From the NCBI GenBank assembly GCA_030622135.1, contig JAUXGL010000003.1, forward strand, positions 1 to 61,902: a stretch of DNA of 61,902 nucleotides, given 5' to 3'. Made by a program: the position numbers and the translations under genes. The notes under the pieces were generated by a model that was given only the letters and a program-made list of their open reading frames with translations, ran no database searches and was not told the DNA's origin. Source of the DNA: Deltaproteobacteria bacterium. Lineage in GTDB: Bacteria > Myxococcota > B64-G9. This document shows, piece by piece, positions 11,680 through 34,304 of the stretch (its first letter is position 1; every line of letters begins with the position of its first letter).

Positions 11680-12468
11680 ATGAACGTAGCCATGCTGCAG
11701 TTCGCGCCGGTTTTCGGGGAAGTGCAGGAAAACCTGCGGGCGATCGAGGAAGCCTGTGCGGATCTCCCAGCCGACTTGGTGGTGCTGCCGGAGTTGTGCA
11801 CCACCGGGTACCAGTTCCGGGACCGCAAGGAACTTCTAGAACTGGCCGAGCCGGCCGGCGGGCCATCTATACAGAGGCTGTCCGGCGTGGCCGCCGCCTG
11901 CGGGGGGCATCTGGTGGCGGGCTTCGCCGAAAAGGAATCCGACCTGGTGTTCAACAGCGCGGCGCTGGTAGGACCGGAAGGCGTCGTGGGCGTTTACCGC
12001 AAGATCCACCTTTTCTCCGAGGAGAAGCGGCTGTTCGAGCCGGGGAACCGAGGGTTTCCGGTTTTCCGAGCGGGCGGCATACCCATCGGCATCATGATTT
12101 GCTTTGACTGGCTCTTCCCCGAATCGGCGCGCTCGCTGGCCCTGGGAGGCGCCTGGGTAATTGCCCACGCCGCCAACCTGGTGCTGCCGTTCTGCCAGGA
12201 TGCCCTGATCACCCGGGCACTGGAAAACCGCGTGTTCATTATGAGCTGCAACCGAACCGGCCGGGAGGAACGCATCGCCGGGAAAAAGTACGAGTTCACC
12301 GGCAGAAGTCGGATGGTGGGACCGGACGGGAAAATCCTGGCCGACGGGCCGCCCGACGCCCCGGCCGTGATCACCGCCGAGATCGATCCCCGCCGGGCCG
12401 ACGACAAGAAGGTCACCTCCCTCAACCACGTCATCCGGGATCGCCGGACCGATCAGTACCGGTTGTAG
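11680..12468 (+). CDS. carbon-nitrogen hydrolase (nitrilase superfamily)
   Basis: Glu-Lys-Cys triad context: VVLPELCTTGY, VYRKIHLF, MICFDWLFPE. The start MNVAMLQFAP at 11680 was chosen over 11644. Confidence 0.8.
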   Translation: MNVAMLQFAPVFGEVQENLRAIEEACADLPADLVVLPELCTTGYQFRDRKELLELAEPAGGPSIQRLSGVAAACGGHLVAGFAEKESDLVFNSAALVGPEGVVGVYRKIHLFSEEKRLFEPGNRGFPVFRAGGIPIGIMICFDWLFPESARSLALGGAWVIAHAANLVLPFCQDALITRALENRVFIMSCNRTGREERIAGKKYEFTGRSRMVGPDGKILADGPPDAPAVITAEIDPRRADDKKVTSLNHVIRDRRTDQYRL

Positions 12469-18323: not shown

Positions 18324-19352
18324 TCATTCCATGCCCTCCAGCAGGCTGGAGATTTCTTCAGGTGAGGGCAACTGGCCTTTTAGCTCCTTGGGTAAACGCT
18401 TGATGGTGCGATAGGTCGCGACGCCAACGGGTTTGCGGGCATCGTGCAAGGCGTATTCGACTACCGTCCGGTTTTTTTCTTTGCAGAGTATGATGCCGAT
18501 GGATGGGTTTTCGTCTTCCATGCGCACCTGGCGGTCGAGGGCGGCGAGGTAGAATTGCATCTTGCCCACGAACTCGGGCTGGAACTTGCCGATCTTGAGC
18601 TCGATGGCGACCAGGGCCTTCAAGCGGCGGTGGTATAGCAACAAGTCAATGAAGTATTCGTCGCCGTCCACCTCCAGCCGAAACTGGCTGCCCACGAAGG
18701 CAAACAACCCACCCATGGTGCGAAGGAAATCCTCGATACGGGCAATGAGTGCGCGTTCTAGCTCGCGCTCGGAATGTTCCTCGCCAAGTTCCAGAAAATC
18801 GAAGGTGTATTCGTCCTTGACGGCAAGTTTTGCCTGCGCTTGAAGCTCCGGGGTGAGAGCCTGGTCGAAATTGGTCTGGCCGAGCAGTGTCTTCTCGTAG
18901 CTTTGGTTTTCAACCTGATGCAGCAGGACATTCCTGGACCACCCGAATTTGCGGGTCATGCGGAGGTAGAACTCCCGTTCCTGCGGGTCTGAACAACGCT
19001 GCAAAATAACGAGATTGTGGCTCCAGCCGATTTCTCGCACAAGCAGTGCGAGTTTTTCAGAATCTGTGTACGCTTCGAAAAAGGCCTTCATGCGCCAGAG
19101 GTTGGAGGTGGAAAAACCGCCAACTCCGGGGAATTCAGTTCGCAAATCCTTGGCCAGTTGTTGAACAACCGACTTGCCCCATGTATCTCCGGCCTGCCGC
19201 TCCAGGATCAGCTTGCCGATATCCCAATACAGGCCGACCAGCTCGTTGTTGACCATCTTGAGAGCTTGATACTGGGCGGCACGGACTCGCTCTTTGATCT
19301 CGATCAGCAGGCCTGCGTAGTCTGCGGGAAGCTGGAGTGAGTTTTTGCTCAT
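18324..19352 (-). CDS. DUF1016/YhcG-family PD-(D/E)xK nuclease
   Basis: 342 aa from the ATG at 19352. Family-typical LVGLYWDIG, GFS.SNLWRMKAFF, SWSHNLVIL, and the core FIDLLLYHRRLKALVAIELKIGKF. ATGA overlap with the upstream gene. Confidence 0.85.
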   Translation of the reverse strand: MSKNSLQLPADYAGLLIEIKERVRAAQYQALKMVNNELVGLYWDIGKLILERQAGDTWGKSVVQQLAKDLRTEFPGVGGFSTSNLWRMKAFFEAYTDSEKLALLVREIGWSHNLVILQRCSDPQEREFYLRMTRKFGWSRNVLLHQVENQSYEKTLLGQTNFDQALTPELQAQAKLAVKDEYTFDFLELGEEHSERELERALIARIEDFLRTMGGLFAFVGSQFRLEVDGDEYFIDLLLYHRRLKALVAIELKIGKFQPEFVGKMQFYLAALDRQVRMEDENPSIGIILCKEKNRTVVEYALHDARKPVGVATYRTIKRLPKELKGQLPSPEEISSLLEGME

Positions 19353-19810
19353 CCCACCAACTCCTCGAAGTTGGCGGTGATGGTCTTCGCCAGTTCCGTC
19401 GCTTCCTCGCGGGCGTGGTCGATGACGCGGATCGTGAGCTTCTGCACCTCGTTGATCTGTTTTCGTAGCGAGGCGAAACGGGTAACAAAGGGCAAGAAGC
19501 TCTCGTGGAGTGCCCGCTGCTGGGCGTTGGTTGTCTTGGTGCCCGCGCCTTTCTTGCCGGCCCAAGTCTGCAAGTCCTTGAACAGCGTAATTCGCTCGGA
19601 CGTGAAGGTGACGATCGTTTCGGTTCGCTTCTTCTGGATAGCCTTGAAGTAGAACACCGCGACATCATCGACCCCGTCAGCAGGGTCGTGCTCAAGTACA
19701 ACACGCTGAACCTTGGAGCCTTCTCTGAGAAGCTCTGCGGCTTGGCGCCAGAAGAACAGACCCTGGTAAACATCGCCTTCCGTACGTGAACCTACCTGTC
19801 CGAGCGCCAT
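19349..19810 (-). CDS. small DUF4297-like PD-(D/E)xK nuclease-domain protein
   Basis: 153 aa. EGDVYQGLFFWRQAAELL...VVLEHDPADGVDDVAVFYFKAIQKK resembles the N-terminal nuclease core of DUF4297/Cap4-type endonucleases. The TGATG junction overlaps the upstream stop by 1 nt. Confidence 0.5.
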   Translation of the reverse strand: MALGQVGSRTEGDVYQGLFFWRQAAELLREGSKVQRVVLEHDPADGVDDVAVFYFKAIQKKRTETIVTFTSERITLFKDLQTWAGKKGAGTKTTNAQQRALHESFLPFVTRFASLRKQINEVQKLTIRVIDHAREEATELAKTITANFEELVG

Positions 19811-21405
19811 CACGCACCTCCTGTCGGAAGCTCTTCGGCCAGGCGCGCGAAGAGCTCGATGCAGGCAAAGCAAATCGATGCGGCGTAGGCCGTGGTCAGC
19901 TTGTCCTCGAGGTGTTGACCCAGATCGCCGGCGCTCTTGACGTGCTCGACGAGAATGTAGCTCGACCGCGTGACATGCTTGGCGACCGTGGGTAGGTTGC
20001 CGTACCCACCTGTAATCTCCCGGAGGACCGCACACTGTTGTCCGTCTTGCTTCGGGAACACTCGTTGCGTGCGTTCGATCGGCTTGACCCCGTCCTTCTC
20101 TTCGCCTTTCCAGGTGTCGATCCAGGACTGCGGCCACTTACCAGCATCCAGCTCTGCATCCCAGATGAGCTCAAGCGCCCGACGCGAGATGAGCCGGATC
20201 GAGTTGAGTGTCTCCGCTGGTCCCACCGCCAGCTCCCGGGTGGCTCGCTCGACATAGCCTCGAAGCTTCGCGTCCCCCCCAGGCACTTGCGCCAGTCGGA
20301 GTTCGAGAACTCGTTGGATCTGTTTGGCGTACAGGTCTTCTGTCAGAAACAGCCTCTTGAGCTCGACCGCTTCACTACCATGGCGGAGTGCCATCTTCTC
20401 CATGAAGCGGCAGTTCAGCTTGGGCTTCCTGCTCGGCGTGAGAAAGCCACGCTGGGCGCCAAACAGAGCACGGTCCTGCGGAATCGAATCCGCAGCGGGT
20501 TGTTTGGCGGCGAGCGCATGAAGGTCTCCGCGCACCTCGATCGGGCAGTCATCCCACAGGTGTTGGAGCAGTGCGTAGGCGCCGCCGGCGATGGCCTCCG
20601 CTTTCTCGTTCACTGCTTGTCCATCGATTTTCGAGCCGGAGCCAGCGGTTTCAACGAGACCACGGCACAAAAGGGCAACCAGAGCTGGGTGACCACCGGA
20701 CCAGTTGAAGATCTCCTTGCGCGCCGACGTGGCAAGATTCTCGACGTGAGCGGCGAGCGGAGCCAGGACCATGTCCTGTTCGTTCTCTTCGAATGGCTCC
20801 AGCACAACCACGGGATCTGCAAAGATGTTCCAGAACTCCGAAGCCAGCGAGTCGGGGTTGTTGCAGAGATCCTGAATTCGACGCCTTGTTCCTGTCACAA
20901 AGGTGCATGACGACTTCAACCCGATTTCACGTAGATAGTCCCAGAGGTTACGGCTGATCGTCGGAGAGCTGAGGACGTGATCGAGCCCGTCCATGATCAC
21001 CAGAAGCCGACCGGTGTCAGTGAGGTAGTCGAAGACCCCCGCCAGCACCTGCGGGAGATCCTCTTCGGTTGTTTCGAGGTCGATCAGTTCAGCGGATTCA
21101 TCGTTCGCATTCTTCAGAGCCGCGTGCACTTCATCGAGGAGTCTTTGACGAAACTCGTGATCCGTTCGAGGCGTATGGTAACGCAGGTCTAGAAAGGCCG
21201 ACGTAACATAGCCGCCGCGCTCAGGACCCACGACGCCGGCGAGATGGTGGAGGAAAGTGGTCTTGCCGATGTACGGCGCTCCAACCATGGAGATGTGGTC
21301 GCCTGTCGCCTTGCCGATTCTGCTCAGGACTGCATTCAGCACCTTCTGACGGCCGAGCATAGGTACCTGAGGAGCATTGGCCAGCGGGTAGAGGTCTTTG
21401 GTCAT
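19810..21405 (-). CDS. NACHT-like STAND P-loop NTPase with helical C-terminal domain
   Basis: 531 aa from the ATG at 21405 (ATGA overlap with the upstream gene). Walker A GAPYIGKTT and Walker B LLVIMDGLDHV (NACHT-style DGLD), followed by a helical C-terminal region. Confidence 0.7.
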   Translation of the reverse strand: MTKDLYPLANAPQVPMLGRQKVLNAVLSRIGKATGDHISMVGAPYIGKTTFLHHLAGVVGPERGGYVTSAFLDLRYHTPRTDHEFRQRLLDEVHAALKNANDESAELIDLETTEEDLPQVLAGVFDYLTDTGRLLVIMDGLDHVLSSPTISRNLWDYLREIGLKSSCTFVTGTRRRIQDLCNNPDSLASEFWNIFADPVVVLEPFEENEQDMVLAPLAAHVENLATSARKEIFNWSGGHPALVALLCRGLVETAGSGSKIDGQAVNEKAEAIAGGAYALLQHLWDDCPIEVRGDLHALAAKQPAADSIPQDRALFGAQRGFLTPSRKPKLNCRFMEKMALRHGSEAVELKRLFLTEDLYAKQIQRVLELRLAQVPGGDAKLRGYVERATRELAVGPAETLNSIRLISRRALELIWDAELDAGKWPQSWIDTWKGEEKDGVKPIERTQRVFPKQDGQQCAVLREITGGYGNLPTVAKHVTRSSYILVEHVKSAGDLGQHLEDKLTTAYAASICFACIELFARLAEELPTGGA

Positions 21406-24400
21406 GATTCCGATCTCCCTTCCTGTACCGCGAGCTTGAGCAGCTCCCTGCGGTCGACGTTCCGCTCGATCCACAGACCCATGAGTGGGACCGTGAGCCG
21501 ATAGACATGGAAGGTGCCGTCCGGCACCTGTGAGATCAGCTCCAGCTCCCTCAGGTGATCGAGGTCATCGCGTAGGCCCTCGACGCTCACGACGTCGCCA
21601 TAGCCAAACCCGGAGCCATCACCACTTCCGCTGCCGTATCCGGAGCCATCGCCAAATCCGGAGCCATCACCGCTCCCGCTGCCGTATCCGGAGCCATCGC
21701 CGTATCCGGAGCCATCGCCGCTCCCGCTCCTGCTCCTACCGCCGAATACATCGTCATAACCGTAACCAATACGAGCGGCCTCGAGCTGGTTCTGCAGCAA
21801 ATCGAAGGTGACGGGATCCGGACCATCCTGGAGGTCGTGGCACAGTTGAAGGACGTACCGTGTGCGCTCCGAGCCAGCATAGCCCCACAGCGTGCGAAAG
21901 TGCTCATTGTCACGGATCATGTCCTCGACTGCGGCATCCACCTGCTTCTTCGAAACGTGACGGACCTCCTCCGCTACGGCCCTATCGAACACCCGAGCGC
22001 ACAGGAGTTGGATGAGGAAGGGATGACGTGCACACAGGGTGGTGATCCGCTCGATGGCGTCTGGTTGGTAGGCCAAGCGACCAGCGACAGGCTTTTGGAC
22101 AAGATCCTCCGCGGCACCTTGCGGGAGGACGGTCACGGAGATTGCGAAACCGAAACCAAACAGTACGTTCCAGTACTCCTCGCGCAGCCTTCGGATCCGT
22201 CGTGAGCCGGTGAGAATGCCTGCCATGCCGGTGTTGTTCTGGAACAGGTAGCGGATGTTCTCCGGTACCTGCGGGCTGGTGACGCCTGAGTCGATACCCT
22301 CCTGTAACTTGTCGAACTCATCGAGCATCAAGAGCAGGCGCCTCGGCGCAACGGCATCGACGGCCACGGCTACCAGCGAATCCAGCGATGTGAATGCAGC
22401 TCGCTCCCTAAACCAGGCATTCACCAGGCTGGGCAGCTTCATGTGTACAAAGGCCTTGCGCTTCTTGTCCGGCCACTGGAGCAAATCGTCGGGCGTGCCG
22501 GGGATGGGGAGTGGATATCCAGCGAGGGCACAGTCTCCCGCAAGCGCTCGGCCAATCGTCTTGAAGACCTCGTCGGTGGGAACGCCAACCTTCGTGCTGT
22601 CACCGGCCGAAGCCTGAAAAGAACAGTACACCGGGACGTGGGACGGGAGTGTATCTGGCCGTTGCAAGCTTTTGAGGATAGAGGTCTTGCCGGTCCGCCG
22701 GTTGCCTTCGAGCAGGATGACGTTCGCGACCCCGTCCTGGCTGAGATGCAGCCGCATCTTGTCGAGGATGTCTTCTCGACCGAAAAACATCTCGGGCCTA
22801 TCAACAGGGTTTCCCACGATGTAAGGGCTCGAACCCATCGCTTCGGGCTCAGTGTCCTTGGCTGCGTGGTCTTTAGCCTCGCCGAGGCTCAGGTCGACGG
22901 TGACCTCCCCCTTGACGGGCTCGAGCGTAGCTGTTGTCCCCTTCCAGGACAGCGTGGCTCGAAACGAATCATCGAGTTCATCGGGGATGCCGATCACGTA
23001 GCGCTCTTCCTGCTCTCCAAGCAGCATATCCTCAGAGATCTTGCGCAAAAGCACGGAAGGCGAAGCGCTCAAGGCTGCTTCGATCCGCAACAGGGGCGCA
23101 GAACCCGCATTGCGTACTCCGATCGTTACCGTTCGTCCAAGCTCCGGCGTCTCAAAGAGCACGCCTTGTTTCACCGTCGGGCCGGGGTCAGGCATCTCAA
23201 AGAGTACGTTTTGCCTCGAGTGGGAATTCGGATGGATCTGGAAAGCCTCGATAGCTACATCGCGTACCAGCGAGCGGCTTGCGTGGATCAACAGGAACCA
23301 TGCCGAGTCCAGCGCTCGCTCCAGACCTCGGCTGTGTGCCCGGAGGCCCTCGGGAATGGACCGGCTGGCCTCCTTCAGGGCCGTAACGACGGCCGATTGG
23401 GCGGACACTTGAATGGGCACAGCGGAGGGGGCCACCACATCGGTCGCCACACCCGCCAGACCATCAGCGATCGGATGTAGCGCACTCACCCAGCTCGAAA
23501 TCTCATCGCCGATGTGGAGCCGGATCGGATCGTCCGCCGCAGCGAGCGCACGTGTAAGCCCCTTACCGAACAGCCGGAGCACCGCGACGGGGTCTTCTTG
23601 GGTCTCCGCAGTGCGCGCGTGGGCGAGCGCGTTTCTCAGTTGGCGGACCGCCTGCACAGCGGGGTCAGATTCCAAGTAGGTAACCACCGGGTGAGTGTCT
23701 TCGGTGAGAACCAAGCGAAGCAAAGCGAGAGCGTCGCCTCCGCGATTCTCGATGGCGTCCGCGATGCGCTCCTGGATCGGGATCGGTGGGCGGGGCAGTC
23801 GGATACGCTTGAGAACCGATAGCGAGAGATGTTGAACAGCGATGCCACGGGCCTGAGACTTCATTAGCTCTTGAAGAGCTGGCGATCGCAATAGCCCACC
23901 CAGGTAACGACTGGACACACCCTGCCGCGGCCGAACGACGATGACACCGTTGGTGGCGATGCACCCGACGCTTCCATTGGTTACCGTTCCAACCCGGCCG
24001 ATGCTGCCTGAAGTGGTCACCACGAGGTCGCCCAAGCGCAACACCTGTCCCTCTTTGGCTCGCTGCACAAGCTCTTGGCGTGCGAAAAGCGATGGGGACT
24101 GCACTCGCCGTTCGTTGACATCGCGCACACGGATCAGGCCTCGGGTTTCCTCGGCTGCGTTGATGTCCTCGGTTGTCTTTGCGCGTGTGTAGCCCAAGCC
24201 GTTGCTCAGAGACGCCATCTCGCCCAAGGACACTACATCCACGTCGTCGAGCTGTTCGAGCTCTGTCAGGGTGACCTGAAGCTCTTCTTCCGCCGCAGAC
24301 GGTGCGATGAGGTTCCAGTCGTGTTCGGCAAGCTCTGACAAGCCAACAACGCGAACGGGACCGTCTGTAGATTCACCTCGGACCCAAGAGATAATCCTGT

Positions 24401-25598
24401 CGAGGTCGCGGTCCAGGTTGAGTGTCTCTCCAAGTACGTTAAGATCGACAAAGCGTACCTGCTTTGCGCTGCCGGTCTTGGAGAGCACCAACAGGGAGAT
24501 CTGAACGCCGGTGTAAGGCAGAAAAGACCCGGTGGGCAGTTGGAGAACGGCTTCGAGGTGATGGTCCTCGATCAGCCACTGCCGCAAGGCCTGTTCCGCG
24601 CCGCCACGAAAGAGAAGCCCGTTCGGCACGGCAACGACAGCTCTTCCCCCAGGACGAAGCGAAGCCATGGCGAGTTGGAGAAAGGTCGCCTCCAATGTGT
24701 TTGTCTTGAAGGGGAGATGCTCGTGTACGGTGGCTTCGCGCGGGCTGCGCTTGCCCCAGGGCGGTACCGCAACCACCACGTCGAAGCGCTGGGCATGTCC
24801 ATTTTCCAGCGGGCGCTGAAGCGCATCTCCGAGAACAAGGCCCGGGTGGTGAACGCCAGCCAGCAGAACTCGTACAAGGCCGATGAGGTGAATGGCGGGC
24901 GAGATCTCCACACCGAAAACGCTCTCTGCCTGAACGCGCTCCCATAACTCGGCAGTGTGAAACTCCGCTGATTGCTGCAACTTGTCGATGCACCGGATGA
25001 GGACCTCCCCCGAACCAAAACAAGGGTCAAAGATCCGTTCACCAGGCGCGGGCGCCGCAAGGCGTGCCATTAGCTCTGCCACCGCCGGAGGGGTCGCATA
25101 GGCTCCACTGTAACGAGACTTGGCGACAGTCTTTCGAAGCAGGTCTCCAAATATCTCGCCGGCGCGTCGCTGGTCAGCATTGGTCTCAAAGGGCAGCTCG
25201 GCCACGGCCTGTAGCAGGTCTTGGAGATCACCGTGTGAGCTGAGCGCATCTTTGATGCTTGGATGCGAAAAATCGACAGAGAGGACGTCGGGGCGTGCTT
25301 CAGCCAGGGCGGGCACGAGCTTGTCTTGGACGTAACCCGCGAGATCAGGTCCCTGCAAGCCGGACCAGGTGTCCCATGCGAGTTCACGCGGCAGCATGTG
25401 CTCGTAGTTCTCGTCGTTGAAGAGCGCGATAGCCTCGCGCTCGGCATCGATCAGGTCGACCCAGCGCAGCAGAAGCAACACCGCCAACTGCGGCAGGGTC
25501 TCGGTCCACGGGTCGACGGCGTTGCCCCTGCGGGCATCGGCCGCCGACCACAAAGCGTGGCTGAGCCTGTCTTCGATGCTGGTGGGGGTGGGCTGCAT
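21402..25598 (-). CDS. fusion protein: HsdM-like N6-adenine methylase module + single HsdS-type TRD + STAND/Arch-type ATPase + low-complexity G/S/D/Y insert
   Basis: 1398 aa from the ATG at 25598. HsdM_N-like LWSAADARRG..LLLLRW. Motif I FDPCFGSGE (25005-25031). Motif IV reads VPPW. TRD-like LGEMASL.NG..., ...ATNGVIVVRP, ...HLSLSVLKRIRLPRPPIPIQERI. FFGRE + Walker A GNRRTGKTS (22680-22706). Walker B LLLMLDEFD (22311-22337). Confidence 0.8.
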   Translation of the reverse strand: MQPTPTSIEDRLSHALWSAADARRGNAVDPWTETLPQLAVLLLLRWVDLIDAEREAIALFNDENYEHMLPRELAWDTWSGLQGPDLAGYVQDKLVPALAEARPDVLSVDFSHPSIKDALSSHGDLQDLLQAVAELPFETNADQRRAGEIFGDLLRKTVAKSRYSGAYATPPAVAELMARLAAPAPGERIFDPCFGSGEVLIRCIDKLQQSAEFHTAELWERVQAESVFGVEISPAIHLIGLVRVLLAGVHHPGLVLGDALQRPLENGHAQRFDVVVAVPPWGKRSPREATVHEHLPFKTNTLEATFLQLAMASLRPGGRAVVAVPNGLLFRGGAEQALRQWLIEDHHLEAVLQLPTGSFLPYTGVQISLLVLSKTGSAKQVRFVDLNVLGETLNLDRDLDRIISWVRGESTDGPVRVVGLSELAEHDWNLIAPSAAEEELQVTLTELEQLDDVDVVSLGEMASLSNGLGYTRAKTTEDINAAEETRGLIRVRDVNERRVQSPSLFARQELVQRAKEGQVLRLGDLVVTTSGSIGRVGTVTNGSVGCIATNGVIVVRPRQGVSSRYLGGLLRSPALQELMKSQARGIAVQHLSLSVLKRIRLPRPPIPIQERIADAIENRGGDALALLRLVLTEDTHPVVTYLESDPAVQAVRQLRNALAHARTAETQEDPVAVLRLFGKGLTRALAAADDPIRLHIGDEISSWVSALHPIADGLAGVATDVVAPSAVPIQVSAQSAVVTALKEASRSIPEGLRAHSRGLERALDSAWFLLIHASRSLVRDVAIEAFQIHPNSHSRQNVLFEMPDPGPTVKQGVLFETPELGRTVTIGVRNAGSAPLLRIEAALSASPSVLLRKISEDMLLGEQEERYVIGIPDELDDSFRATLSWKGTTATLEPVKGEVTVDLSLGEAKDHAAKDTEPEAMGSSPYIVGNPVDRPEMFFGREDILDKMRLHLSQDGVANVILLEGNRRTGKTSILKSLQRPDTLPSHVPVYCSFQASAGDSTKVGVPTDEVFKTIGRALAGDCALAGYPLPIPGTPDDLLQWPDKKRKAFVHMKLPSLVNAWFRERAAFTSLDSLVAVAVDAVAPRRLLLMLDEFDKLQEGIDSGVTSPQVPENIRYLFQNNTGMAGILTGSRRIRRLREEYWNVLFGFGFAISVTVLPQGAAEDLVQKPVAGRLAYQPDAIERITTLCARHPFLIQLLCARVFDRAVAEEVRHVSKKQVDAAVEDMIRDNEHFRTLWGYAGSERTRYVLQLCHDLQDGPDPVTFDLLQNQLEAARIGYGYDDVFGGRSRSGSGDGSGYGDGSGYGSGSGDGSGFGDGSGYGSGSGDGSGFGYGDVVSVEGLRDDLDHLRELELISQVPDGTFHVYRLTVPLMGLWIERNVDRRELLKLAVQEGRSES
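21597..21743. repeat. in-frame 48-nt tandem repeat (about 2.75 units) encoding SGSGDGSG(Y/F)GDGSGYG
   Basis: The peptide GGRSRSGSGDGSGYGDGSGYGSGSGDGSGFGDGSGYGSGSGDGSGFGYG is read directly from the ORF. The DNA shows repeating ccggagccatc(a/g)cc units. Confidence 0.85.
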
Positions 25599-25602: not shown

Positions 25603-26778
25603 TCAGAGCTCTCCCGCAAAGGCTTTGCGGAGGATGGCTGCGCGGAAAGTTGCCGAATCATCAATGCCGTACTCTTTGCAGAGCGCAGTTGACGCTCGCC
25701 AAGCCTCGTCCAAGCGCTCGATCAAGACTTGTTGCACTGCTAGTTTGGGAACTGGAATCTCGACTGACCGAAGCCTTTTTCCAGAGATCTTCACCATGCT
25801 CTGGCTACTACCCGTTGCTCTTTCTTGAATCTGTTTGCGAGTGTCAGGAAATCGCAATGTATACATTAGGTACTTAGGAAGAATGATCGCATCATTTGCG
25901 CAGAGACGAATCATCAAGTCTGGATAGATAACTCGGTCTTCGACTGCGGCCTCAGCAATAGCCGATAACCCGACGAATTCGACAGTGTTGGCGCGCGAAA
26001 TGAATACGTCGCCAATAGCAACTTGGTATTTCTTGGCAACTCCGTCATCCATTTCGACCCACTTGAACTTTGACACGTCCAGATGTGGTTCGCGTACAGA
26101 TGCCAACGTCAGGATGCGCCCTGTCCCATGATCGCCCAATGATTTGATTGACCTGCCGTTTCGACTGTCGACCAGGATGTTGTCCATGGTCATCATGTTC
26201 GTTCCGGCATCAGTCTCCGCGCGATGCAGAAAGGAGCCGAATAGCGCCTTTGCCTCATCTTCTGCCTTATTGCGCAACCTCCGCAGCTCATCCACTCGCT
26301 CCATGGCATCACGAATTCGCGTCACGATGCGCTGTTGTTCATTGAGTGGGGGAGTGGGTATCTCAATCGACTCCAACTTCCCCTTTGTTATGTGTCGCAA
26401 TCCGACCCCGCCATGGGCCAGCTCGATCATCTCATCAAGCTGGGAGTTGACCGCATGCAAGAAAAACAGTGGGAGTATTCTCTTCGGGTCAACAAGGACT
26501 TTGAAGATGTGTTGATTGAGGACGGCATTACCGCCATGCCATTGGAAACACCCAAACGACGTGCCAGGCGTGCCCGACCATGAAAGCAGAATGTCACCGC
26601 TTTCGATAATGTGCTTATCCTTGACCTCTCCATTGTAGCGATTGAACGGCTTTGATGGATTGTTGAGGTTCTGTATCCGGACGATCTTCAGTCCTTCTTT
26701 GGTCCAGTCAGATGGCTTGAAGGCTCGTCCGTTGACAAGGTCGCATAGGTCACCAATGTGGGTACGCCTCCAGTTCAT
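25603..26778 (-). CDS. hsdS: type I restriction-modification specificity subunit
   Basis: 391 aa with two TRDs separated by the conserved spacer PPLNEQQRIVTRIRDAMERVDELRRL. C-terminal conserved helix ...AILRKAFAGEL. ATGA overlap with hsdM. Confidence 0.9.
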   Translation of the reverse strand: MNWRRTHIGDLCDLVNGRAFKPSDWTKEGLKIVRIQNLNNPSKPFNRYNGEVKDKHIIESGDILLSWSGTPGTSFGCFQWHGGNAVLNQHIFKVLVDPKRILPLFFLHAVNSQLDEMIELAHGGVGLRHITKGKLESIEIPTPPLNEQQRIVTRIRDAMERVDELRRLRNKAEDEAKALFGSFLHRAETDAGTNMMTMDNILVDSRNGRSIKSLGDHGTGRILTLASVREPHLDVSKFKWVEMDDGVAKKYQVAIGDVFISRANTVEFVGLSAIAEAAVEDRVIYPDLMIRLCANDAIILPKYLMYTLRFPDTRKQIQERATGSSQSMVKISGKRLRSVEIPVPKLAVQQVLIERLDEAWRASTALCKEYGIDDSATFRAAILRKAFAGEL

Positions 26779-28295
26779 ACCTCCCCCTCCAACATCTCCT
26801 CTAACTCCCCAAGAAGCTCGAAGATCCGCTCTTCTTTCGTCTTGATGGATCGCACCAGCTCCAGCGCCGGAACGTGCTCGTAGTCGTCTTTCTTGTTGGG
26901 GTTACGAGCCGTGAGGTCCCAGCCATCTTCCTCAAAGGCAACCTCATCGAACTCGACCACCCATGAGTTGTCGCCCTCGACCTGCTTCTTCCGCTTCTTG
27001 AGAAAATCGGGGAGTTGGCTGCCCTCGATTGGTTTGCGCGTCTGCTTCAACTCGAAGCCGTCGTTGGTCAGCTCGTAGAACCAGATCTTGTTTGTGGTAG
27101 CGGCCTTCTTCGGTCGGTCAAAAAAGATGACGTTGGTCTTTACGCCGGTGTAGGGCAAGAATGCTCCGGCCGGCAGAGATAGGATGGTGTGCACCTTGAA
27201 CTGGGTTAGCAGCTTCTTGCGCACCTTGGCATCCGGACCGCCGCGAAACAGCACGCCCTCGGGAAGGATCACTCCCGCTCGTCCGCCCTTGGCCAGGTTG
27301 GTCATGATGTGCTGCAAGAAGAGGATCTCGGTCGCGGCCGACTGGATGGTGAAGTTGCCCTGGGAGTCCCGGTCCATCTTGCCGCCATAGGGCGGATTGG
27401 AGAGGATCACAGAAAAACGGCGCTGCTCGGCCACGTTGTTCTCGTGGCGCTCCAGGGTGTCGGCCAGGGCCAGCTTGGCCTTGTCGATACCGTGTAGGAT
27501 CATGTTCATGACCCCGAGCAAGTAGGAAAGCGGCTTGAGCTCGTTGCCGGCGAAGGTGTCTCTTTGAAAACGCTCGAAGTCTTCGCCGCTCATGTTGGAG
27601 TCGTGGTGCTTGATGTACTCTGCCGACTCGAAGAGAAAGCCGGCCGTCCCCATGCAGGGATCGTAAACGCGGTCACCAAGACGTGGTTTGACCACTTCGA
27701 CCATGGCCTTGACGATGTGGCGTTGGGTGTAAAACTCGCCCGCGTACCCGGCGGAGTCACCGGCAACGTCCTTGAGCAGGCGCTCGTAGATCTCCGACAG
27801 CTCGATAACGTCGGCCTGGCGGCTGAAATCGATCCGTTCGACCTGACTGACCACGCGGGCAAAGCTGCCGGGGCGCCGGCTGTGATTGCGGATCGTGCTG
27901 AAGATGCGCTGGAATTGGAGGCCAAGGGTATCGTCGCCGAGGGTCGTGAGCTTCTCGAAGAGGTCGGCGTTGACAAAACGAAAGACCTCTTCGGGAGTCT
28001 TCAGGCCTTTGACAGCCTTACTCTTGCCGGTGAGCGCGCGAGTCCACGTCGACCAACGGTACTTGCCATTGAGCCGCCTCTCATAGGGCGTGTCCTCGAA
28101 GGCGGACTCTTCTTCTCGGCGGTCCTCCGATGCCTCGAAGGCTTTCAGGAAAAATAGCCAGGAGAGTTGCTCGACGTAATTTCGCGGCTCGACACCGTCG
28201 CTGTTGAGCTGATCGCAGGCATTGTTGACCGCCTGCCGTACATTGTCGCGTCGTGCCTCGGCTCCGTTTCCTGGTTTTGTGGTCTTTGAAGTCAT
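26775..28295 (-). CDS. hsdM: type I restriction-modification DNA methyltransferase subunit
   Basis: 506 aa. HsdM_N-like YVEQLSWLFFLKAF, motif I VYDPCMGTAGFL and canonical motif IV ILSNPPYGG. Confidence 0.92.
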   Translation of the reverse strand: MTSKTTKPGNGAEARRDNVRQAVNNACDQLNSDGVEPRNYVEQLSWLFFLKAFEASEDRREEESAFEDTPYERRLNGKYRWSTWTRALTGKSKAVKGLKTPEEVFRFVNADLFEKLTTLGDDTLGLQFQRIFSTIRNHSRRPGSFARVVSQVERIDFSRQADVIELSEIYERLLKDVAGDSAGYAGEFYTQRHIVKAMVEVVKPRLGDRVYDPCMGTAGFLFESAEYIKHHDSNMSGEDFERFQRDTFAGNELKPLSYLLGVMNMILHGIDKAKLALADTLERHENNVAEQRRFSVILSNPPYGGKMDRDSQGNFTIQSAATEILFLQHIMTNLAKGGRAGVILPEGVLFRGGPDAKVRKKLLTQFKVHTILSLPAGAFLPYTGVKTNVIFFDRPKKAATTNKIWFYELTNDGFELKQTRKPIEGSQLPDFLKKRKKQVEGDNSWVVEFDEVAFEEDGWDLTARNPNKKDDYEHVPALELVRSIKTKEERIFELLGELEEMLEGEV

Positions 28296-28307: not shown

Positions 28308-30602
28308 TCATGCGCTAAGCGGAACGTAGAGATGGCGCTTGACCTCCTCGAGGTCACTGCGCAGTTGCTTGGCGTTTCCGTAGCGTCTGAGCAACTGCGT
28401 GAAGCTGCCAAAGCGACCTACGAACTGCGGGGTGCGGAACGTGCGGGCATCTTCGAGATCATCGACGCCAAACAGGGTGTAGTGGTCGAGGCAGGTCTCC
28501 CAGAATTGCAGGCGAATCCGGTCTTCCTGCGAGATGTTCTCCTCGCCGATATGCGCGAGCAGCCAGTCCTGGTCGTACTCCCAGAAGTGGGCGACACGAT
28601 CCCGTCGCTCGGGAACCCTGACCAGATCAAAGGCTACCTTTGACAAGACATCGACATCGTCCGTCTCCGGGAGGTCGAAGAAGTGGCGAAAGGCGGCTAC
28701 GTGGACATCCTGGTCACGAAGCTCAGCCCGGAGCTCCTGGCGCGTTCGCTTGTCAATCCATGCGTCCAGCAGCGCCTTGAGGTCAGGCGTTACGAGCGTT
28801 CGTATCGCGCCCTTTGATTGCTCCTTGTATTCCTCGAATGGGATCTTGCGTCCATCCGCCAGGCACACGAAGCGGCGGTTGTCAGAGAGCTCGATGGTGA
28901 CTCCCTGCTCGACCGGAATGTCTTTGGGCTCGCTTTTCTTGCGAGGTTTCTTCGCGGGCTTTCGCGACTTGTCCTGATTGGCCGGGTGGCCGTCGAACTC
29001 GGAGTCCTCGAGCGTGCTCGCGCCAGAGTAATCCCAGATCGTGAAGTAGCGCTTGTCGACCTCTGGGTCGTCGCACAATCGAGTGCCGCGACCCTTCATC
29101 TGTTTGTAGAGAATGGAGCTGCGGAGGGGGCGTACAAAGACGATGTTCTTGACGTCAGGGGCGTCGTATCCCGTGGTCAGTAGATCGACGGTGACGGCGA
29201 CGCGAGGATTTGTGCGGCCGACTTCCTGAAAGTTCCGCTCCAGCTGGTGGGAGTTCCTCTCGGCGCGGGTAATTCGCGCGGCGTATTCGGGGTCTCCGGT
29301 GATCCGTCTGAGCTCCTGCGCCATGAAAGCCGCGTGAGTGTCATTGACGCAGAAGACGATGCTCTTCTCGTTCTCGAGCCCGTACCTCTTGAGCTGAGCG
29401 TAGAGGTCTTCCGCGATCCACTTGGTGCGATCCGGCAGAGACACATCACGCTCAAAGTGTTTGGTCTCGTATCGGCGCCCATCGGGGCCGTCGTAACCCT
29501 CTTCGTCGACGTTGGTGATGCGCTGCTCGAGAAGGTAGGGCACCAGGTAGCCATCTTCGATGGCCTGTTTGAGCGAATAGGTGAAAATGGGCTCGCCGAA
29601 ATACTCATAGCTGTCCCGACGGAGTTCCTCGGGGCTAAGGTCCCGGCCCTCTTTGTAAAGCTCACGCGGAGTGGCCGTCAGGCCTAACTGGTAGGCCTTA
29701 CCAAAGTGCTCCAAGACCCCGAACCAGTCGCCAAATCCAGAGCGATGGCACTCATCGATGACGATGAGATCAAAGAAGTCGGCCTCGTAGTGTTCATAGA
29801 GCTTTTTGCCGTCCAGCTCCTCGTCGAGGTTCTGGTAGTTGGCGAAGAACACCTTACCAACTCGGTGGGTCCCGGCTTTGACAGCGTTCTTGTCAATGGT
29901 GACGCGCTCGTCCGTTGGGAAACCATTGAACGCTCGGTAGGCCTGACCCTTGAGGCTGTTGCGATCCGTGAGAAAGAGGACGTTTCCTCGTGGAAGGATA
30001 TCGGTTTGCAGGAGCTTCCACACGAGTTGAAAGACCGTGAAGGTCTTGCCCGTGCCCGTGGCCATGAGCAACAAGACCCGGCGGTTGTCTTGCGAGAACT
30101 GGTACAGCGCCTCAGTGATGGCGCGCTCTTGATACGGACGGACCTTCTTGCGCGAGATCTGATCGACGTGCCAGTCGGCAAGGAAGGCGTCATTCCAACT
30201 GCGGGGGATCATGTTGAGCCCCATATAATGGAGAACATCGCCAGGTGGAGGAGGCGTATCCTGGGTGTGGTACTCGCCAGTCTTGTTGTCAGTGACGATG
30301 TACTCGTGGCCGTTGCTCGCGATGGAGAAGCGGAGGCTCAGACGCTGTGCGTAGCGCGAGCCTTGCTGCATCCCGTCAGATGCGTCTTCGTCCTCCCTCT
30401 TCGCTTCAAGAATGGCCAGAGGCATACCATAGAGCTTGAGGACGTAGTCGGCGACGATGTGCTGATGCTCATCGTACATTCGTTCGCCGGAGAGATTCAC
30501 TCGTCCGGGGCCAATCATCACCTCACGAGACCATGTCCAGCCTGCAGCTTCGAGCGCAGGCTCGATAAGCTCTCGGCAGGTTTGGTTCTCGTTGCGGCTC
30601 AT
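28308..30602 (-). CDS. hsdR: type I restriction endonuclease subunit R
   Basis: 764 aa. N-terminal nuclease region ETCRELIEPALEAAGW...ADYVL...AILEAK. SF2 helicase motifs LLLMATGTGKT and VIDECHR. GAGGAG SD 5 nt upstream of the ATG. Confidence 0.9.
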   Translation of the reverse strand: MSRNENQTCRELIEPALEAAGWTWSREVMIGPGRVNLSGERMYDEHQHIVADYVLKLYGMPLAILEAKREDEDASDGMQQGSRYAQRLSLRFSIASNGHEYIVTDNKTGEYHTQDTPPPPGDVLHYMGLNMIPRSWNDAFLADWHVDQISRKKVRPYQERAITEALYQFSQDNRRVLLLMATGTGKTFTVFQLVWKLLQTDILPRGNVLFLTDRNSLKGQAYRAFNGFPTDERVTIDKNAVKAGTHRVGKVFFANYQNLDEELDGKKLYEHYEADFFDLIVIDECHRSGFGDWFGVLEHFGKAYQLGLTATPRELYKEGRDLSPEELRRDSYEYFGEPIFTYSLKQAIEDGYLVPYLLEQRITNVDEEGYDGPDGRRYETKHFERDVSLPDRTKWIAEDLYAQLKRYGLENEKSIVFCVNDTHAAFMAQELRRITGDPEYAARITRAERNSHQLERNFQEVGRTNPRVAVTVDLLTTGYDAPDVKNIVFVRPLRSSILYKQMKGRGTRLCDDPEVDKRYFTIWDYSGASTLEDSEFDGHPANQDKSRKPAKKPRKKSEPKDIPVEQGVTIELSDNRRFVCLADGRKIPFEEYKEQSKGAIRTLVTPDLKALLDAWIDKRTRQELRAELRDQDVHVAAFRHFFDLPETDDVDVLSKVAFDLVRVPERRDRVAHFWEYDQDWLLAHIGEENISQEDRIRLQFWETCLDHYTLFGVDDLEDARTFRTPQFVGRFGSFTQLLRRYGNAKQLRSDLEEVKRHLYVPLSA

Positions 30603-30641: not shown

Positions 30642-30657
30642 TGCAGATGTCGTGCCA
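30642..30657 (-). promoter_or_regulatory. sigma-54 (-24/-12) promoter driving hsdR and the downstream operon
   Basis: The minus strand reads TGA-TGGCACG-ACAT-CTGCA, against the consensus TGGCACG-N4-TTGCW. It starts immediately after the activator gene's stop and lies about 40 nt upstream of the hsdR ATG. Confidence 0.75.
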
Positions 30658-32175
30658 TCATCTCTCCACCCCATATTTCTTGAGCCAGTTCGTTAGCGTC
30701 TGATAGCTCGGGAGGCCCACCAGCTCGGCGGCCTTGGTCTTGTTTCCGCTCGCCTCATCGATGGCGCGCCCCAGATAATGCCTGGCTATTTCTGTTAGTA
30801 AATCCGGTAGGTTGAACTTGCCACCAAGCTGCCGCCCGAACGCCTCCGACCGGCTTGCGAAGCCGGAAGGGAGCAGAGCCTCTCGCGCATCTTCGACGGT
30901 GATCGTCGCGCTGTCGGACCAGATCGCTGCACGTCGGAGCGTGTTGAGCAACTCCCTGACATTGCCGGGCCAGGGATGCGAAAGCATAAGATTTCTTGCC
31001 CCAGCGGAAAGTTTCTTGTGCTTGAACTCAGGTTCGACCATAGCCTCTTCATTCACCTGCTGGAGAAGTCGGTCGATGAGTAGTCCAAGGTCGCCAGCGC
31101 GATCGCGAAGCGGTGGGATATTCAGGACGGCAACCGCCAGTCGGTAAAAGAGGTCTTCACGGAAGCGGCCGGCTGCAATCTCCTCGGTGAGGGTCCTATT
31201 CGTCGCGGCAATGATGCGGACGTTGACCTTGGCGGCTTTGGTCGACCCGAGACGAACAACCTCTCCCTCTTGGATGACCCGGAGCAGCTTCACCTGGGCC
31301 GAACCGGGCAGATCCCCGAGTTCATCGAGAAACAGGGTCCCGGTGTTCGCAGCCTCGAAGTAGCCCTTCCGCGGTTCATTCGCGCCAGTAAACGCTCCCT
31401 TCTCGTGCCCAAAGAGCTCTGACTCCACGAGGTCGTCGGGTATTGCCCCGCAGTTGACCGCTACGAACGGCGCCTGGCTCCGAGTGCTCGCCTGATGGAT
31501 CGCGCGCGCGATCATCTCCTTGCCTGTTCCTGACTCTCCCTCGATCAAGACGGGTACGTTGCGAACCGCTACTCGCCGCGCTCGTTGGATGAGTCGGTCC
31601 ATCACCCGGCTTCGATAGATGATATCGGCGAACTCGGGCGCCTCAGGCGACTCGGCGCCGCTCAGCTCCCGCAAGCGTTCATCGCGTTCGCGGAGCAGAT
31701 CTGGCAGGAAGTCGACGGCGATATCGAACGGGACCTCGGCGGTGCGCACGCCATGGTCCCTTGAAGACTCAATCAGCTCTGCCGGGAACCGTGTCTTGGC
31801 GAGTAGTATCCAGACCGCCGCCATCGCCGGCGTGCCCGGGCTCAAGTGGAAGCTGAGCGAGGCCTCTTTCGCGCGTCCGTCCAGAGCTGCGCTGATCGTG
31901 CGGACGGCAGCCTTGTAGATCTCCCCAAAGTTAGTCGGGCCAGAACGCGGCTCGAATTGTAGGTCGATCTTTGCTGCCGTTCGAGCCCGCACCCACGCGG
32001 CGTAGGGTTTGACCTCCGCCTTGGGATAATCGTGAAGAAGAATGATGCGGTCGAACGCAAGCGCATCCACTGCCTGAGCAATGGGCCCGACTCCGACCGT
32101 CTCCTCCTCCGTTCGTGCGCGGAGATCCGTTCGGCCGACCCAGCTGACAAGAACCTTCTCCATGCCGAAAGACAT
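30658..32175 (-). CDS. RtcR-family sigma-54-dependent transcriptional activator (CARF-type N-domain + AAA+ + Fis-type HTH)
   Basis: The N-domain [32 protein letters not shown] parallels E. coli RtcR's YLIHITTGTHVAQICWFLLAEARYLPARLIQSS. AAA+ motifs GESGTGKE, the GAFTGA loop and FLDELGDL. C-terminal [26 protein letters not shown]. Confidence 0.85.
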
Positions 32176-32239
32176 ACAAGAAATCTACTGAAAACACAAG
32201 ATCTCTTGCAGGCTGCCACGTGTGCAGGTGTACGGAATG

Positions 32240-32572: not shown

Positions 32573-33025
32573 ATGGCGAACCGAAAAATGCACATGATTG
32601 TTGGGGCTGCCGCTGGTGGTGCCAGCGCTTGCTTTCTCGCCCGTGACCAAGAGCCGGCCCACCAGCTCGTAGAAACTCTTGGCGGCGTGCTCGCGGGCAC
32701 CTTGGGCGGGAGACTCCCCGACATCATCGAGCCCGCGCTTCATCCAGGGCATCGCAGCGTCGCGCACGCCATGCTTCCCACTGGCGCGGCCGGAGTTGCT
32801 GTTGTCCCGCGCCTACGCGCCGGACAACAGCGCGGCCGGCGGTGGGCCGATCAATGCCACGCACGTCGCGATGGCGCCGAGAACCTGCTCGCGCAGATCC
32901 TCTGGTGGCTCGCCGAGATGGCATGTCGACTCGTATCGGGCGCAGTGGGCGGGATCGCGGCGGGTTACGCGTCCCACCTCGTCTTGGATGCGACCACCCC
33001 GATGGGATTGCCACTGCTTGCGTGA
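32573..33025 (+). CDS. DUF457/YdjM-like membrane-bound metal-dependent hydrolase
   Basis: RLPDIIEP...HPGHRSVAHA and GYASHLVLDATTPMGLPLL parallel E. coli YdjM's LPDIDHP, GHRGFTHS and GYLSHILADMLTPAGVPLL. Confidence 0.7.
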   Translation: MANRKMHMIVGAAAGGASACFLARDQEPAHQLVETLGGVLAGTLGGRLPDIIEPALHPGHRSVAHAMLPTGAAGVAVVPRLRAGQQRGRRWADQCHARRDGAENLLAQILWWLAEMACRLVSGAVGGIAAGYASHLVLDATTPMGLPLLA

Positions 33026-33038
33026 GGGAGGAGAGCAC

Positions 33039-34304
33039 ATGGCCATCGATCAGAAAGAGCTTGGACAACGGCTGAAAGGTGCGCGCGAGGCCTGCGGGAT
33101 GACCCAGGACGATGTTGCGCGGCAGCTCGGCGTCTCGCGCTCCACCGTGGCGCAGATGGAGCTCGGCAACCGCGCGGTTACAGGCATCGAGTTGTCACGC
33201 CTCGCCTACCTGTTCGGCAAGGACCTGCGGAGCTTCGTCGCAGTCGAGGCTCCCGATCAGGAGGACGCCCTGGTCGCGCTCTTCCGTCTCCATCCGGAGC
33301 TGTCGAGCCAGGAGGACGTGATCGAGGCCCTGCGGCAATGTCTGGCGCTCGGCCGCGAGCTGACCAATCTGGAGCGGCTGCTCGGCGTCGATCGAGGCCT
33401 CGCCACGGTCGCCGCCTATCCCCTGCCGAGACCGCGAACCAAGTGGGAGGCCATCCAACAGGGAGAGCGCATCGCGCTCGAAGAGCGCAGGCGCCTCGGG
33501 CTTAGCCTCGCCGCACTGCAGGACGTCGCCGAGCTGCTCGAAGCGCAAGGCATCCGCACGGCTCAGGTGACCTTGCCCGAGGACATCTCGGGCCTGACCC
33601 TCATCGAGCCCAAGATTGGCTTCTTCGTGGTGGCCAACCTGGAGCATCACATCCTGCGCAGACGCTTCTCCTATGCACACGAGTACTGCCACGTGCTGGT
33701 CGACCGTAACGAACGCGGGCTCGTGAGCCGTGGACAAGACCGCGATGAGCTGCTGGAGATCCGTGCCAACGCCTTCGCCGCGAGCTTCCTCATGCCGGCC
33801 GACGCCGTGCGTCGGTTCATCAGCGCCCTGGGCAAGGGGCAGCCGAGCCGAATGGAAGCCGAGGTATTCGACGAGGGGGCGCCGGTCTCCGCGCGGGCGC
33901 GATCGGCGCCGGGCAGCCAGGACATCCAGCTCTACGACGTGGTCCAGATGGCCCACCACTTCGGGGTAAGCCGGGCAGCGGCCTGCTACCGTCTCAAGAG
34001 CGCTCGGCTGCTCACGAGCGCAGAGCTCGATTCCCTGCTTGAGCACGACCGCGCCGGTCGAGGCCGCGAGATCGAGAAGCTCCTGGGTCTCCCGGAACCC
34101 GACCATCAGGCCCGGCGAGATGATTTCCGCCACCGCTTCCTGGGGCTGGCCCTAGAGGCCTTCAGGCGGGAGGAGATCTCGCGGGCGAAGCTCGTCGAGG
34201 TCGCGGCCATGGTCGATGTGGACGCGAGCGATGTGGATCGAGCCACTTTGGACCTGGGCCTCGATGATGACGGGGGTGCCGAGGTTCACCTCCCCGGAGC
34301 GTAG
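33039..34304 (+). CDS. fused XRE-family HTH regulator / ImmA-IrrE (COG2856) zinc metallopeptidase
   Basis: ATG at 33039 after GGAGGAG. HTH LGQRLKGAREACGMTQDDVARQLGVSRSTVAQMELGNR. HExxH as YAHEYCHVLVD. Confidence 0.85.
   Translation: MAIDQKELGQRLKGAREACGMTQDDVARQLGVSRSTVAQMELGNRAVTGIELSRLAYLFGKDLRSFVAVEAPDQEDALVALFRLHPELSSQEDVIEALRQCLALGRELTNLERLLGVDRGLATVAAYPLPRPRTKWEAIQQGERIALEERRRLGLSLAALQDVAELLEAQGIRTAQVTLPEDISGLTLIEPKIGFFVVANLEHHILRRRFSYAHEYCHVLVDRNERGLVSRGQDRDELLEIRANAFAASFLMPADAVRRFISALGKGQPSRMEAEVFDEGAPVSARARSAPGSQDIQLYDVVQMAHHFGVSRAAACYRLKSARLLTSAELDSLLEHDRAGRGREIEKLLGLPEPDHQARRDDFRHRFLGLALEAFRREEISRAKLVEVAAMVDVDASDVDRATLDLGLDDDGGAEVHLPGA

Follow-up and report, generated by a model that had tools for sequence, protein, structure and literature searches.

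The closest described relatives of the regulator considered here are RtcR and a family related to it. RtcR of E. coli and Salmonella switches on the RNA-repair operon rtcBA. It becomes constitutive when its N-terminus is truncated, and its CARF domain binds 5' tRNA halves ending in a 2',3'-cyclic phosphate, after which the protein oligomerises (PMC7790460). A further report (PMC9650030) states that activation of RtcR requires RtcA/RtcB binding. Makarova, Anantharaman, Grishin, Koonin and Aravind (2014, Front Genet, PMC4012209) described an RtcR-related family of the same architecture that is not linked to Rtc, is frequently linked to restriction-modification (R-M) systems and was predicted to exert its effect through sigma-54. 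Bell et al. (2024, eLife, PMC11090510) extended this prediction of R-M-linked RtcR-like activators and proposed the same RNA ligand, with a feedback loop via the HEPN RNases of CoCoNuT systems. No experimental tests of such activators were found in the literature searched, and a Geobacter RpoN-regulon paper names hsdR only in strain genotypes. The DNA examined here is a 61.9-kb window of contig JAUXGL010000003.1 (all coordinates are in window numbering), in which an RtcR-like sigma-54 activator gene lies directly ahead of a Type I R-M operon. The locus is a member of the group for which such a regulator has already been predicted (PMC4012209, PMC11090510): like the R-M-associated RtcR-like regulators (PDLC01995; PMC4012209), it combines the same architecture with an R-M neighbour and lacks rtcBA, and nothing essential sets it apart from them. 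Its cis-regulatory layout, comprising a promoter at the activator stop codon, a palindromic operator and an intragenic pair of sites, was not found described in the literature searched and appears to be new. We consider it likely that the R-M-associated activator, two pairs of palindromes (pairs A and B), the stop-codon promoter and a 12.3-kb operon form a self-contained regulatory cassette.

Relatives were collected in a contig scan with one genome per species, which yielded 509 activator relatives. The best 80 loci were analysed; they come from Myxococcota, Acidobacteriota, Gemmatimonadota, Planctomycetota, Latescibacterota, Desulfobacterota, Magnetococcales, Binatia and Gammaproteobacteria. 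For counts of cargo, the 68 loci with at least 2 kb downstream of the activator were taken as informative. The activator and its candidate control elements in the window are:

30658..32175, minus strand: activator gene, encoding a CARF-AAA+-helix-turn-helix (HTH) sigma-54 enhancer-binding protein (Pfam; PADLOC RtcR_PspF2, 8.7e-200)
31696..32163, minus strand: CARF-like sensor, residues ~5-160 (AlphaFold (AF2) model, Foldseek, conserved columns, hhalign)
30868..31623, minus strand: sigma-54 AAA+ module with lid, residues 185-436 (Pfam Sigma54_activat and AAA_lid_14)
31516-31539, minus strand: Walker A (motif position)
31381-31398, minus strand: GAFTGA loop (motif position)
30673..30792, minus strand: C-terminal Fis-type helix-turn-helix, residues 462-501 (Pfam HTH_8)
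30642..30657, minus strand: predicted sigma-54 promoter TGGCACGACATCTGCA (pattern search; position conserved in relatives)
32176..32209, minus strand: pair A, GCAAGAGATCTTGT (32209-32196) and AGTAGATTTCTTGT (32189-32176), 20 bp start-to-start (motif search and position weight matrix, PWM)
30986..31019, minus strand: pair B, ACAAGAAACTTTCC (31019-31006) and GCAAGAAATCTTAT (30999-30986), 20 bp start-to-start (PWM, codon skew)

The activator open reading frame (ORF) spans 505 residues in the ORF list and translation. ATG 32163, the codon of M5, is probably the true start, giving a protein of 501 residues, because homologues begin at M5 and an operator abuts ATG 32175. The domain architecture is directly supported. 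In Pfam searches, Sigma54_activat covers residues 185-350 (2.4e-71, 239.3 bits against a cut-off of 20.2) and AAA_lid_14 residues 357-436 (5.6e-17), while the Walker A motif GESGTGKE occupies residues 213-220 and GAFTGA residues 260-265. With an AAA+ domain above the Pfam cut-off, a Walker A motif and a GAFTGA loop all present, the protein qualifies as a sigma-54 enhancer-binding protein. The HTH_8 match at residues 462-501 barely passes (22.2 bits against a cut-off of 22.0); across the family, each column of this HTH is conserved at 80-99%, which fits one shared binding motif. From the translation, the initial annotation had read a Fis-type HTH and a complete sigma-54 AAA+ module that carries the GAFTGA loop, and the Pfam matches and motif positions bear this out. 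The PADLOC model 'RtcR_PspF2--CARF_AAA_HTH' (PDLC01995) matches the activator over its full length (8.7e-200, 662.9 bits; residues 7-504 align with positions 2-481 of the 481-position profile). Comparison with the related loci strongly supports a role for the activator as a regulator.

The resemblance to RtcR extends to the sensor domain. E. coli K-12 RtcR is 30% identical to the activator over 487 residues spanning the N-domain (BLASTP, E 6e-51), and residues 110-138, the peptide that had been aligned by eye in the initial annotation, pair with HITTGTHVAQICWFLLAEARYLPARLIQSS of the E. coli protein; the claimed alignment holds. A comparison of the two N-domain profiles gave 90.9% probability (hhalign, E 1.2e-6, 70 columns aligned). 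The two proteins share a CARF-like N-domain, a sigma-54 AAA+ module, an HTH and the aligned strand-4 motif. The RtcR N-domain acts as a negative gate released by ligand, and that of the activator probably does likewise. They differ in the position of the target operon, which is divergent for RtcR and co-directional and downstream for the activator. They also differ in that RtcA and RtcB bind the RtcR CARF domain, while tblastn searches with the E. coli proteins found no rtcA or rtcB in the 61.9-kb window, where none had been noticed before, or in the 80 related loci with flanks of up to 10 kb on each side. One could argue that the activator is nevertheless a genuine RtcR, that its rtcBA target lies elsewhere in the genome and that its adjacency to R-M genes is coincidental, since its top NCBIfam match is the RtcR model (NF038308, 2.7e-102) and it has 30% identity to the E. 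coli protein. This proposal is largely refuted, and we give it very little credence: the activator scores 343.3 bits on the RtcR model, far under the cut-off of 650; the other family model, PADLOC RtcR_PspF2, fits far better at 662.9 bits; no rtcA or rtcB lies near any of the 80 relatives; and promoter and R-M synteny are kept across phyla. Furthermore, the palindromic motif described below, rCAAG-N4-CTTGT, was not found in the E. coli rtcR-rtcB control (intergenic) region. The activator is an RtcR-like protein, not RtcR itself.

The predicted promoter TGGCACGACATCTGCA starts at the base right after the activator TGA, 40 nt ahead of the hsdR ATG, with its −24 GG at 30656-30655 and its −12 GC at 30644-30643. 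Transcription is predicted to start near 30631, and a GAGGAG ribosome-binding site lies at 30612-30607. The promoter owes its significance to a position conserved across related loci, not to the match in the window. Indeed, when 2.75 million positions were scanned, 29 sites scored at least 11/12, of which 22 fell within 30 nt of an activator stop on the coding strand, and all five perfect-score sites were within 30 nt of an activator stop codon. Of 77 loci, 65 have a −24 element adjoining the activator stop, and in 47 its first base falls exactly at +1; unlike this stop-adjacent promoter, the last activator codons and the downstream leader are not conserved. Thirty-two loci have TTGC as the −12 element and 19 have TTGA, the latter mostly of a Myxococcota type in which TGGCACG-N4-TTGAA occupies the same +1 position. 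A split of the loci into those with and those without a downstream promoter was rejected as an artefact of requiring GC at −12. The loci with TTGAA or TTGAT at −12 are L003-L007, L010, L013, L014, L016, L020, L021, L023, L027, L029 and L032; in most of them hsdR starts ~28 nt after the activator stop, and the hsdR mRNA would therefore be nearly leaderless.

The R-M cargo is likewise directly supported. In the survey of RtcR-like homologues without rtcBA that had been suggested as a check, Type I hsdR proved to be the first same-strand gene downstream of the activator in 44 of the 68 informative loci. Together with the stop-adjacent promoter, this agrees with the placement of the activator, proposed in the initial annotation, as the driver of an R-M/ATPase/nuclease operon. 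Association with R-M rather than with rtc, the mark of the family, is thus found in the window and in these 44 relatives. In six to eight of the 68 loci, the activator is followed by a methyltransferase-ATPase fusion and a STAND NTPase without hsdR. Other loci carry diverse, mostly defence-like cargo, such as an ABC-ATPase pair similar to PADLOC NsnB/PDC-M55A, a Type IIG/DrmMI-like methylase accompanied by a DUF4007 protein, or a TPR protein pair. In L077, the unit of sigma-54 promoter and cargo is cut off from the activator by an insertion sequence element with a DDE transposase gene (11646-13364). L040 (at about 17093) has a second strong sigma-54 promoter after the first cargo pair, ahead of further genes.

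The putative operator consists of tandem 14-bp palindromes, rCAAG-N4-CTTGT, placed 20 bp apart, and was first seen in the non-coding region of loci with a divergent sigma-54 promoter. Near-perfect matches number 133 in 1.37 Mb of related loci, 52 of them within 100 bp upstream of the activator start, and in nearly all loci the motif is enriched just upstream of that start. A PWM built from these upstream sites gave, as its four best hits in the whole window, exactly the two pair A and two pair B sites. Pair A is directly upstream of the activator start codon, its second site abutting ATG 32175; it probably overlaps the activator's own promoter and mediates autoregulation, the HTH being the presumed binding domain. 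Within 32163-32215 (minus strand), a −35-like TTGTGT ends the first palindrome of pair A and a −10-like element follows directly after the second, so the activator's promoter may be built into pair A, which would leave little or no leader ahead of ATG 32163; a simple sigma-70 scan did not report these elements.

In some relatives an extra canonical sigma-54 promoter lies on the opposite strand ~100 bp from pair A, facing away from the activator. These loci are L002-L005, L007, L011, L013, L014, L016, L018, L020, L021, L023, L026, L027, L032, L033, L068 and L069. In at least ten loci (including L002, L003, L007, L013, L016, L018, L023 and L033) it faces a conserved gene of 560-600 codons, c5, whose product has no Pfam match above the gathering cut-off (one weak DUF2130 match) and no PADLOC or NCBIfam match. 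Both c5 and the divergent promoter are absent from the window.

No operator was found within 250 bp of the sigma-54 promoter at the activator stop; the sites lie at −344/−364 instead. Pair B is located inside the activator coding sequence, where it encodes 12 residues, 344-364 bp upstream of the promoter, and the PWM places it at −364/−344 from the activator stop in most loci. In 63 activator genes with 62% G+C, the codons covering pair B depart strongly from gene-wide usage: Ala is GCA in 60/63 (12% gene-wide), Arg is AGA or AGG in 49/50 (12%), Leu is CTT in 47/50 and 44/48 (15%), and Ser is TCT in 51/63 (7%). In a gene-wide scan, synonymous constraint formed a multi-codon peak at pair B and nowhere else in the activator gene. 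By this codon evidence, pair B is maintained at the DNA level through skewed codon choice. A GG-N10-GC promoter with upstream candidate activator sites, pairs A and B, is thus predicted from sequence, as expected for an enhancer-binding protein. The initial annotation had also considered that matching activator sites might lie at a true target elsewhere in the genome, with none near hsdR; the latter part does not hold, as pair B lies 344 bp upstream of the hsdR promoter.

We interpret the palindromes as sites for the activator HTH and pair B as the probable enhancer of the stop-codon promoter. Alternatively, the palindromes may only autoregulate the activator through a repression loop between pairs A and B, with the sigma-54 promoter either activated from solution or by another activator, or serving as a closed-complex roadblock that insulates the operon from read-through. 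Such a scheme would account for the overlap, in nearly all loci, of pair A with the likely promoter or 5' end of the activator gene, for the unusual distance of pair B from the promoter, for the three loci that retain pair B without a detected promoter, and for the loci in which pair A and a divergent sigma-54 promoter are ~100 bp apart. Given the last point, not every pair has to act on the downstream promoter. We nonetheless regard a purely autoregulatory function as improbable: pair B co-occurs with the downstream promoter, the spacing between the two is kept at 341-350 bp in most loci, and no other activator gene is conserved in the 80 loci.

The sensor domain was placed through its structure. 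Neither Pfam, even at E 10, nor a sequence profile search against PDB chains gave any match for the isolated N-domain (residues 1-189), and its fold was therefore established by structure prediction and Foldseek. The AF2 model, built on 121 sequences with a predicted local distance difference test (pLDDT) score of 85.5, has strands at residues 6-12, 43-48, 69-74, 105-110, 132-138 and 142-145, arranged in the six-stranded CARF topology with the CARF strand order, including the strand 5-6 hairpin. The top 38 PDB matches of the model are all CARF proteins (Csm6, Can2, Card1, VC1899, Cam1; best E 3.4e-7), and weaker PADLOC matches of the activator are to RtcR, Csx1/Csm6 (7e-8) and other CARF models. 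By its predicted fold, the N-domain belongs to the CARF superfamily. Two motifs stand out, W-x-G-x-T-D following strand 1 and H-L-S-P-G-T-P following strand 4, in which G14/T16/D17 and H110/S112/G114/T115 are invariant or nearly so across the activator family. H110, S112, P113, G114, T115 and P116, as well as K127, T128, R129 and E136-S138, do not vary among the 20 closest sequences and reach at least 90% conservation in the set of 121. Four positions after S112, where a canonical CARF has a basic residue (criterion of PMC4012209), the activator has Pro116, which matches the divergent RtcR branch of CARF proteins. The N-domain family shows 50-73% identity across phyla, the best relative being 73% identical in this domain. 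A profile search of 1.84 billion cluster representatives recovered 1497, 945 and 286 members at E ≤1e-3, ≤1e-10 and ≤1e-30, respectively. Three database proteins from long contigs (68-230 kb), P0048, P0063 and P0102, consist of the N-domain alone (~185-190 residues); they may be free-standing CARF proteins, or frameshifts may have split the gene calls.

These features bear on the nature of the ligand. A cyclic oligonucleotide or other small nucleotide messenger, supplied by a system encoded elsewhere in the genome such as Type III CRISPR or a CBASS-like one, is a tentative candidate with a modest chance of being correct. It is suggested by the best structural matches, which are Csm6, Can2, Card1 and Cam1 CARFs bound to cA4 or cA6, by the matches of PADLOC Csx1/Csm6 and other CARF models, and by the nearly invariant loop motifs of strands 1 and 4. 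However, no cyclase or Cas10 gene is present in the window, nor does one recur when the neighbour genes of the 80 loci are clustered, and the family lies in the divergent RtcR-like branch, whose members are said to bind distinct ligands (PMC4012209). RNA with cyclic-phosphate ends, previously proposed for the family (PMC4012209, PMC11090510), would fit the homology of the activator N-domain to that of RtcR, whose CARF domain oligomerises upon binding such tRNA halves (PMC7790460), and the lack, in both proteins, of a basic residue four positions after the strand-4 Ser/Thr. We think this ligand unlikely: the N-domain likeness to RtcR is limited to 70 aligned profile columns, the closest structural matches are cyclic-oligoadenylate-binding CARFs, and the window operon has no recognisable RNase domain such as HEPN, its nuclease being of the PD-(D/E)xK YhcG type. 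In addition, RtcR activation needs binding of RtcA/RtcB, according to PMC9650030, and both are absent here. The initial annotation had further envisaged positive feedback through an RNA-cleaving operon product; this idea has no basis in the locus because no operon product has a recognisable RNase domain.

These considerations have led us to propose a model for the control of the restriction operon by the cassette. Without signal, the CARF domain would, like that of RtcR, exert negative control, so that the AAA+ domain stays inactive and of low order. A nucleotide-derived ligand arising from infection or nucleic-acid damage would bind the CARF dimer, allowing the activator to oligomerise on pair B and possibly on pair A. 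By looping, the activator would then reach the closed complex of sigma-54 holoenzyme at 30657-30642, which it would open with ATP, so that hsdR and the coupled restriction operon genes are transcribed. A basal or internal hsdMS promoter, or leakiness of the sigma-54 promoter, would keep the host methylated.

Several points weigh against this model. In the window alone, 2 promoter sites with at most 1 mismatch were found against 1.7 expected, which is not above chance, and the −12 element of the window promoter is CTGCA, not TTGCA. Pair B is ~360 bp from the predicted start site, beyond typical enhancers (about 100-150 bp), and is kept in three loci that have no detected promoter. Its co-occurrence with the promoter (59/8/3/7, odds ratio 17, Fisher p 2e-4) is uncorrected for phylogeny. 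A constitutive hsdMS promoter or leakiness has to be assumed because a fully inducible R-M system endangers an unmethylated host, and a simple scan revealed no sigma-70 consensus promoter for the activator or hsdM. No sigma-54 factor occurs among the window ORFs scanned with Pfam and NCBIfam, no dedicated rpoN search having been made. Finally, the literature searched contained no transcription, binding or ligand data for the activator family.

The operon downstream of the promoter extends over 12.3 kb from hsdR to a YhcG-type nuclease gene, with start and stop codons that overlap or nearly abut throughout:

28308..30602, minus strand: hsdR, Type I restriction subunit (EcoAI/FtnUII-like), first gene of the operon (Pfam ResIII, HSDR_N, EcoEI_R_C; PADLOC REase_I)
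26775..28295, minus strand: hsdM, Type I methyltransferase subunit, 12 nt after hsdR (Pfam N6_Mtase, HsdM_N; PADLOC MTase_I, 6.8e-136)
25603..26778, minus strand: hsdS, Type I specificity subunit, ATGA overlap with hsdM (Pfam Methylase_S twice; PADLOC Specificity_I)
21402..25598, minus strand: fusion of ~1398 aa, with an HsdM-like methyltransferase, a half-HsdS target-recognition domain and an AAA_16/STAND-like ATPase (Pfam)
19810..21405, minus strand: STAND-type NTPase, ~531 aa, ATGA overlap with the fusion (weak Pfam AAA_16, nSTAND2, NACHT)
19349..19810, minus strand: 153-aa ORF, TGATG overlap with the STAND stop and ATGA overlap with the YhcG start (junctions and translation)
18324..19352, minus strand: YhcG/DUF1016 PD-(D/E)xK nuclease, start 19352, last gene of the operon (Pfam YhcG_C 7e-62, DUF1016_N; PADLOC PDC-S02, 2e-152)

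HsdR, HsdM and HsdS are all encoded, as judged by Pfam, NCBIfam and PADLOC, and constitute a Type I R-M system; HsdR scores 513 bits on the NCBIfam restrict_EcoAI model, whose cut-off is 550. The fusion gene begins 4 nt after hsdS. Only generic methyltransferase and specificity-subunit models match its product, the ATPase half matching no defence model, and the STAND NTPase has no PADLOC or NCBIfam match. This pair of genes (19810-25598) may represent an undescribed defence module; it is the sole cargo behind the activator in L024, L028, L039, L040, L052, L055 and L077, and lies upstream of the activator in L035. The 153-aa ORF has no confident Pfam domain; a suspected resemblance of its beginning to that of a Cap4/DUF4297 nuclease was dropped for lack of Pfam support. 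Over its first 29 residues it shares 69% identity with the beginning of a gene that lies at one end of locus L007 (20463-20549). PDC-S02, the model matched by the YhcG-type nuclease, is a PADLOC candidate defence gene. Within the operon, neither a simple sigma-70 scan nor a simple terminator scan yielded a decisive result.

Beyond the YhcG gene lie a TonB-dependent receptor gene and purA, and the remaining window is housekeeping. Divergent from the activator, an ORF at 32679-34304 (plus strand), whose start at 32679 is probably over-extended, encodes an XRE-type HTH fused to an M78 (ImmA/IrrE-like) peptidase with PADLOC RmrA and CapP matches. It is probably a separate defence-island gene because it is not conserved beside the activator in relatives. 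Near the window end, a perfect sigma-54 consensus, TGGCACCGTTGTTGCT, occurs at 61267-61282 (plus strand), its target gene being cut off; it is presumably served by another activator because the sole nearby hit to the palindrome motif is weak (61616-61633, score 10.0) and downstream.

The organisation of the locus resembles that of the CoCoNuT superoperons (PMC11090510), in which an RtcR-like CARF gene is at the 5' end, a co-directional Type I R-M system comes next and further defence genes follow. In those superoperons, the distal genes are McrB/McrC-like (CnuB/CnuC) and a CnuH helicase with HEPN, whereas domain searches detected no McrBC/CoCoNuT module or recognisable RNase, such as HEPN, in any gene of the window operon. 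The latter instead ends with the YhcG nuclease, followed by housekeeping genes, and its extra cargo is the fusion and the STAND NTPase.

With respect to regulation, the locus can be set beside other activators. Classical enhancer-binding proteins with tandem upstream sites, such as NtrC at glnAp2 and PspF at pspA, have two dyads about two helical turns apart, a GG-N10-GC promoter and sites that overlap the promoter region of the activator gene itself. The window locus likewise has two dyads about two turns apart, a promoter of this type and sites that probably overlap the activator's own promoter; unlike those systems, it has one pair in the activator's coding sequence, a promoter fused to the stop codon and a spacing of ~340-360 bp. 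Dedicated control of an immunity locus is also exerted by Csa3, a CARF-winged HTH protein of CRISPR loci and thus another CARF sensor, and by the C-proteins of Type II R-M systems. C-proteins lack a sensor domain and set the timing of R relative to M during establishment. The activator is distinguished from Csa3 and the C-proteins by its use of sigma-54 and an ATP-driven AAA+ motor in place of simple sigma-70 activation or repression.

We consider it an even chance that the activator, its intragenic enhancer and the stop-codon promoter constitute a portable cassette that has been recombined before many defence cargos in at least eight phyla. These cargos would include two Type I R-M lineages, the methyltransferase-ATPase/STAND pair, a Type IIG/DISARM-like methylase and the ABC-ATPase pair. 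The association with R-M will not surprise a specialist, and it is the defined elements that add testability: the 16-bp promoter, the 14-bp palindromic operator and the intragenic pair are exact sequences that make the prediction of inducible restriction directly testable, and a cassette this compact could be transferred to a tractable host. An enhancer within the activator's own codons would also be a clear case of overlapping protein and DNA-binding codes. R-M systems are usually regarded as constitutive innate immunity. A ligand-sensing sigma-54 activator ahead of R-M genes implies, as predicted in 2014, that restriction can be switched on by a danger signal; if the portable cassette operates as proposed, it would make DNA restriction infection-induced rather than constitutive.

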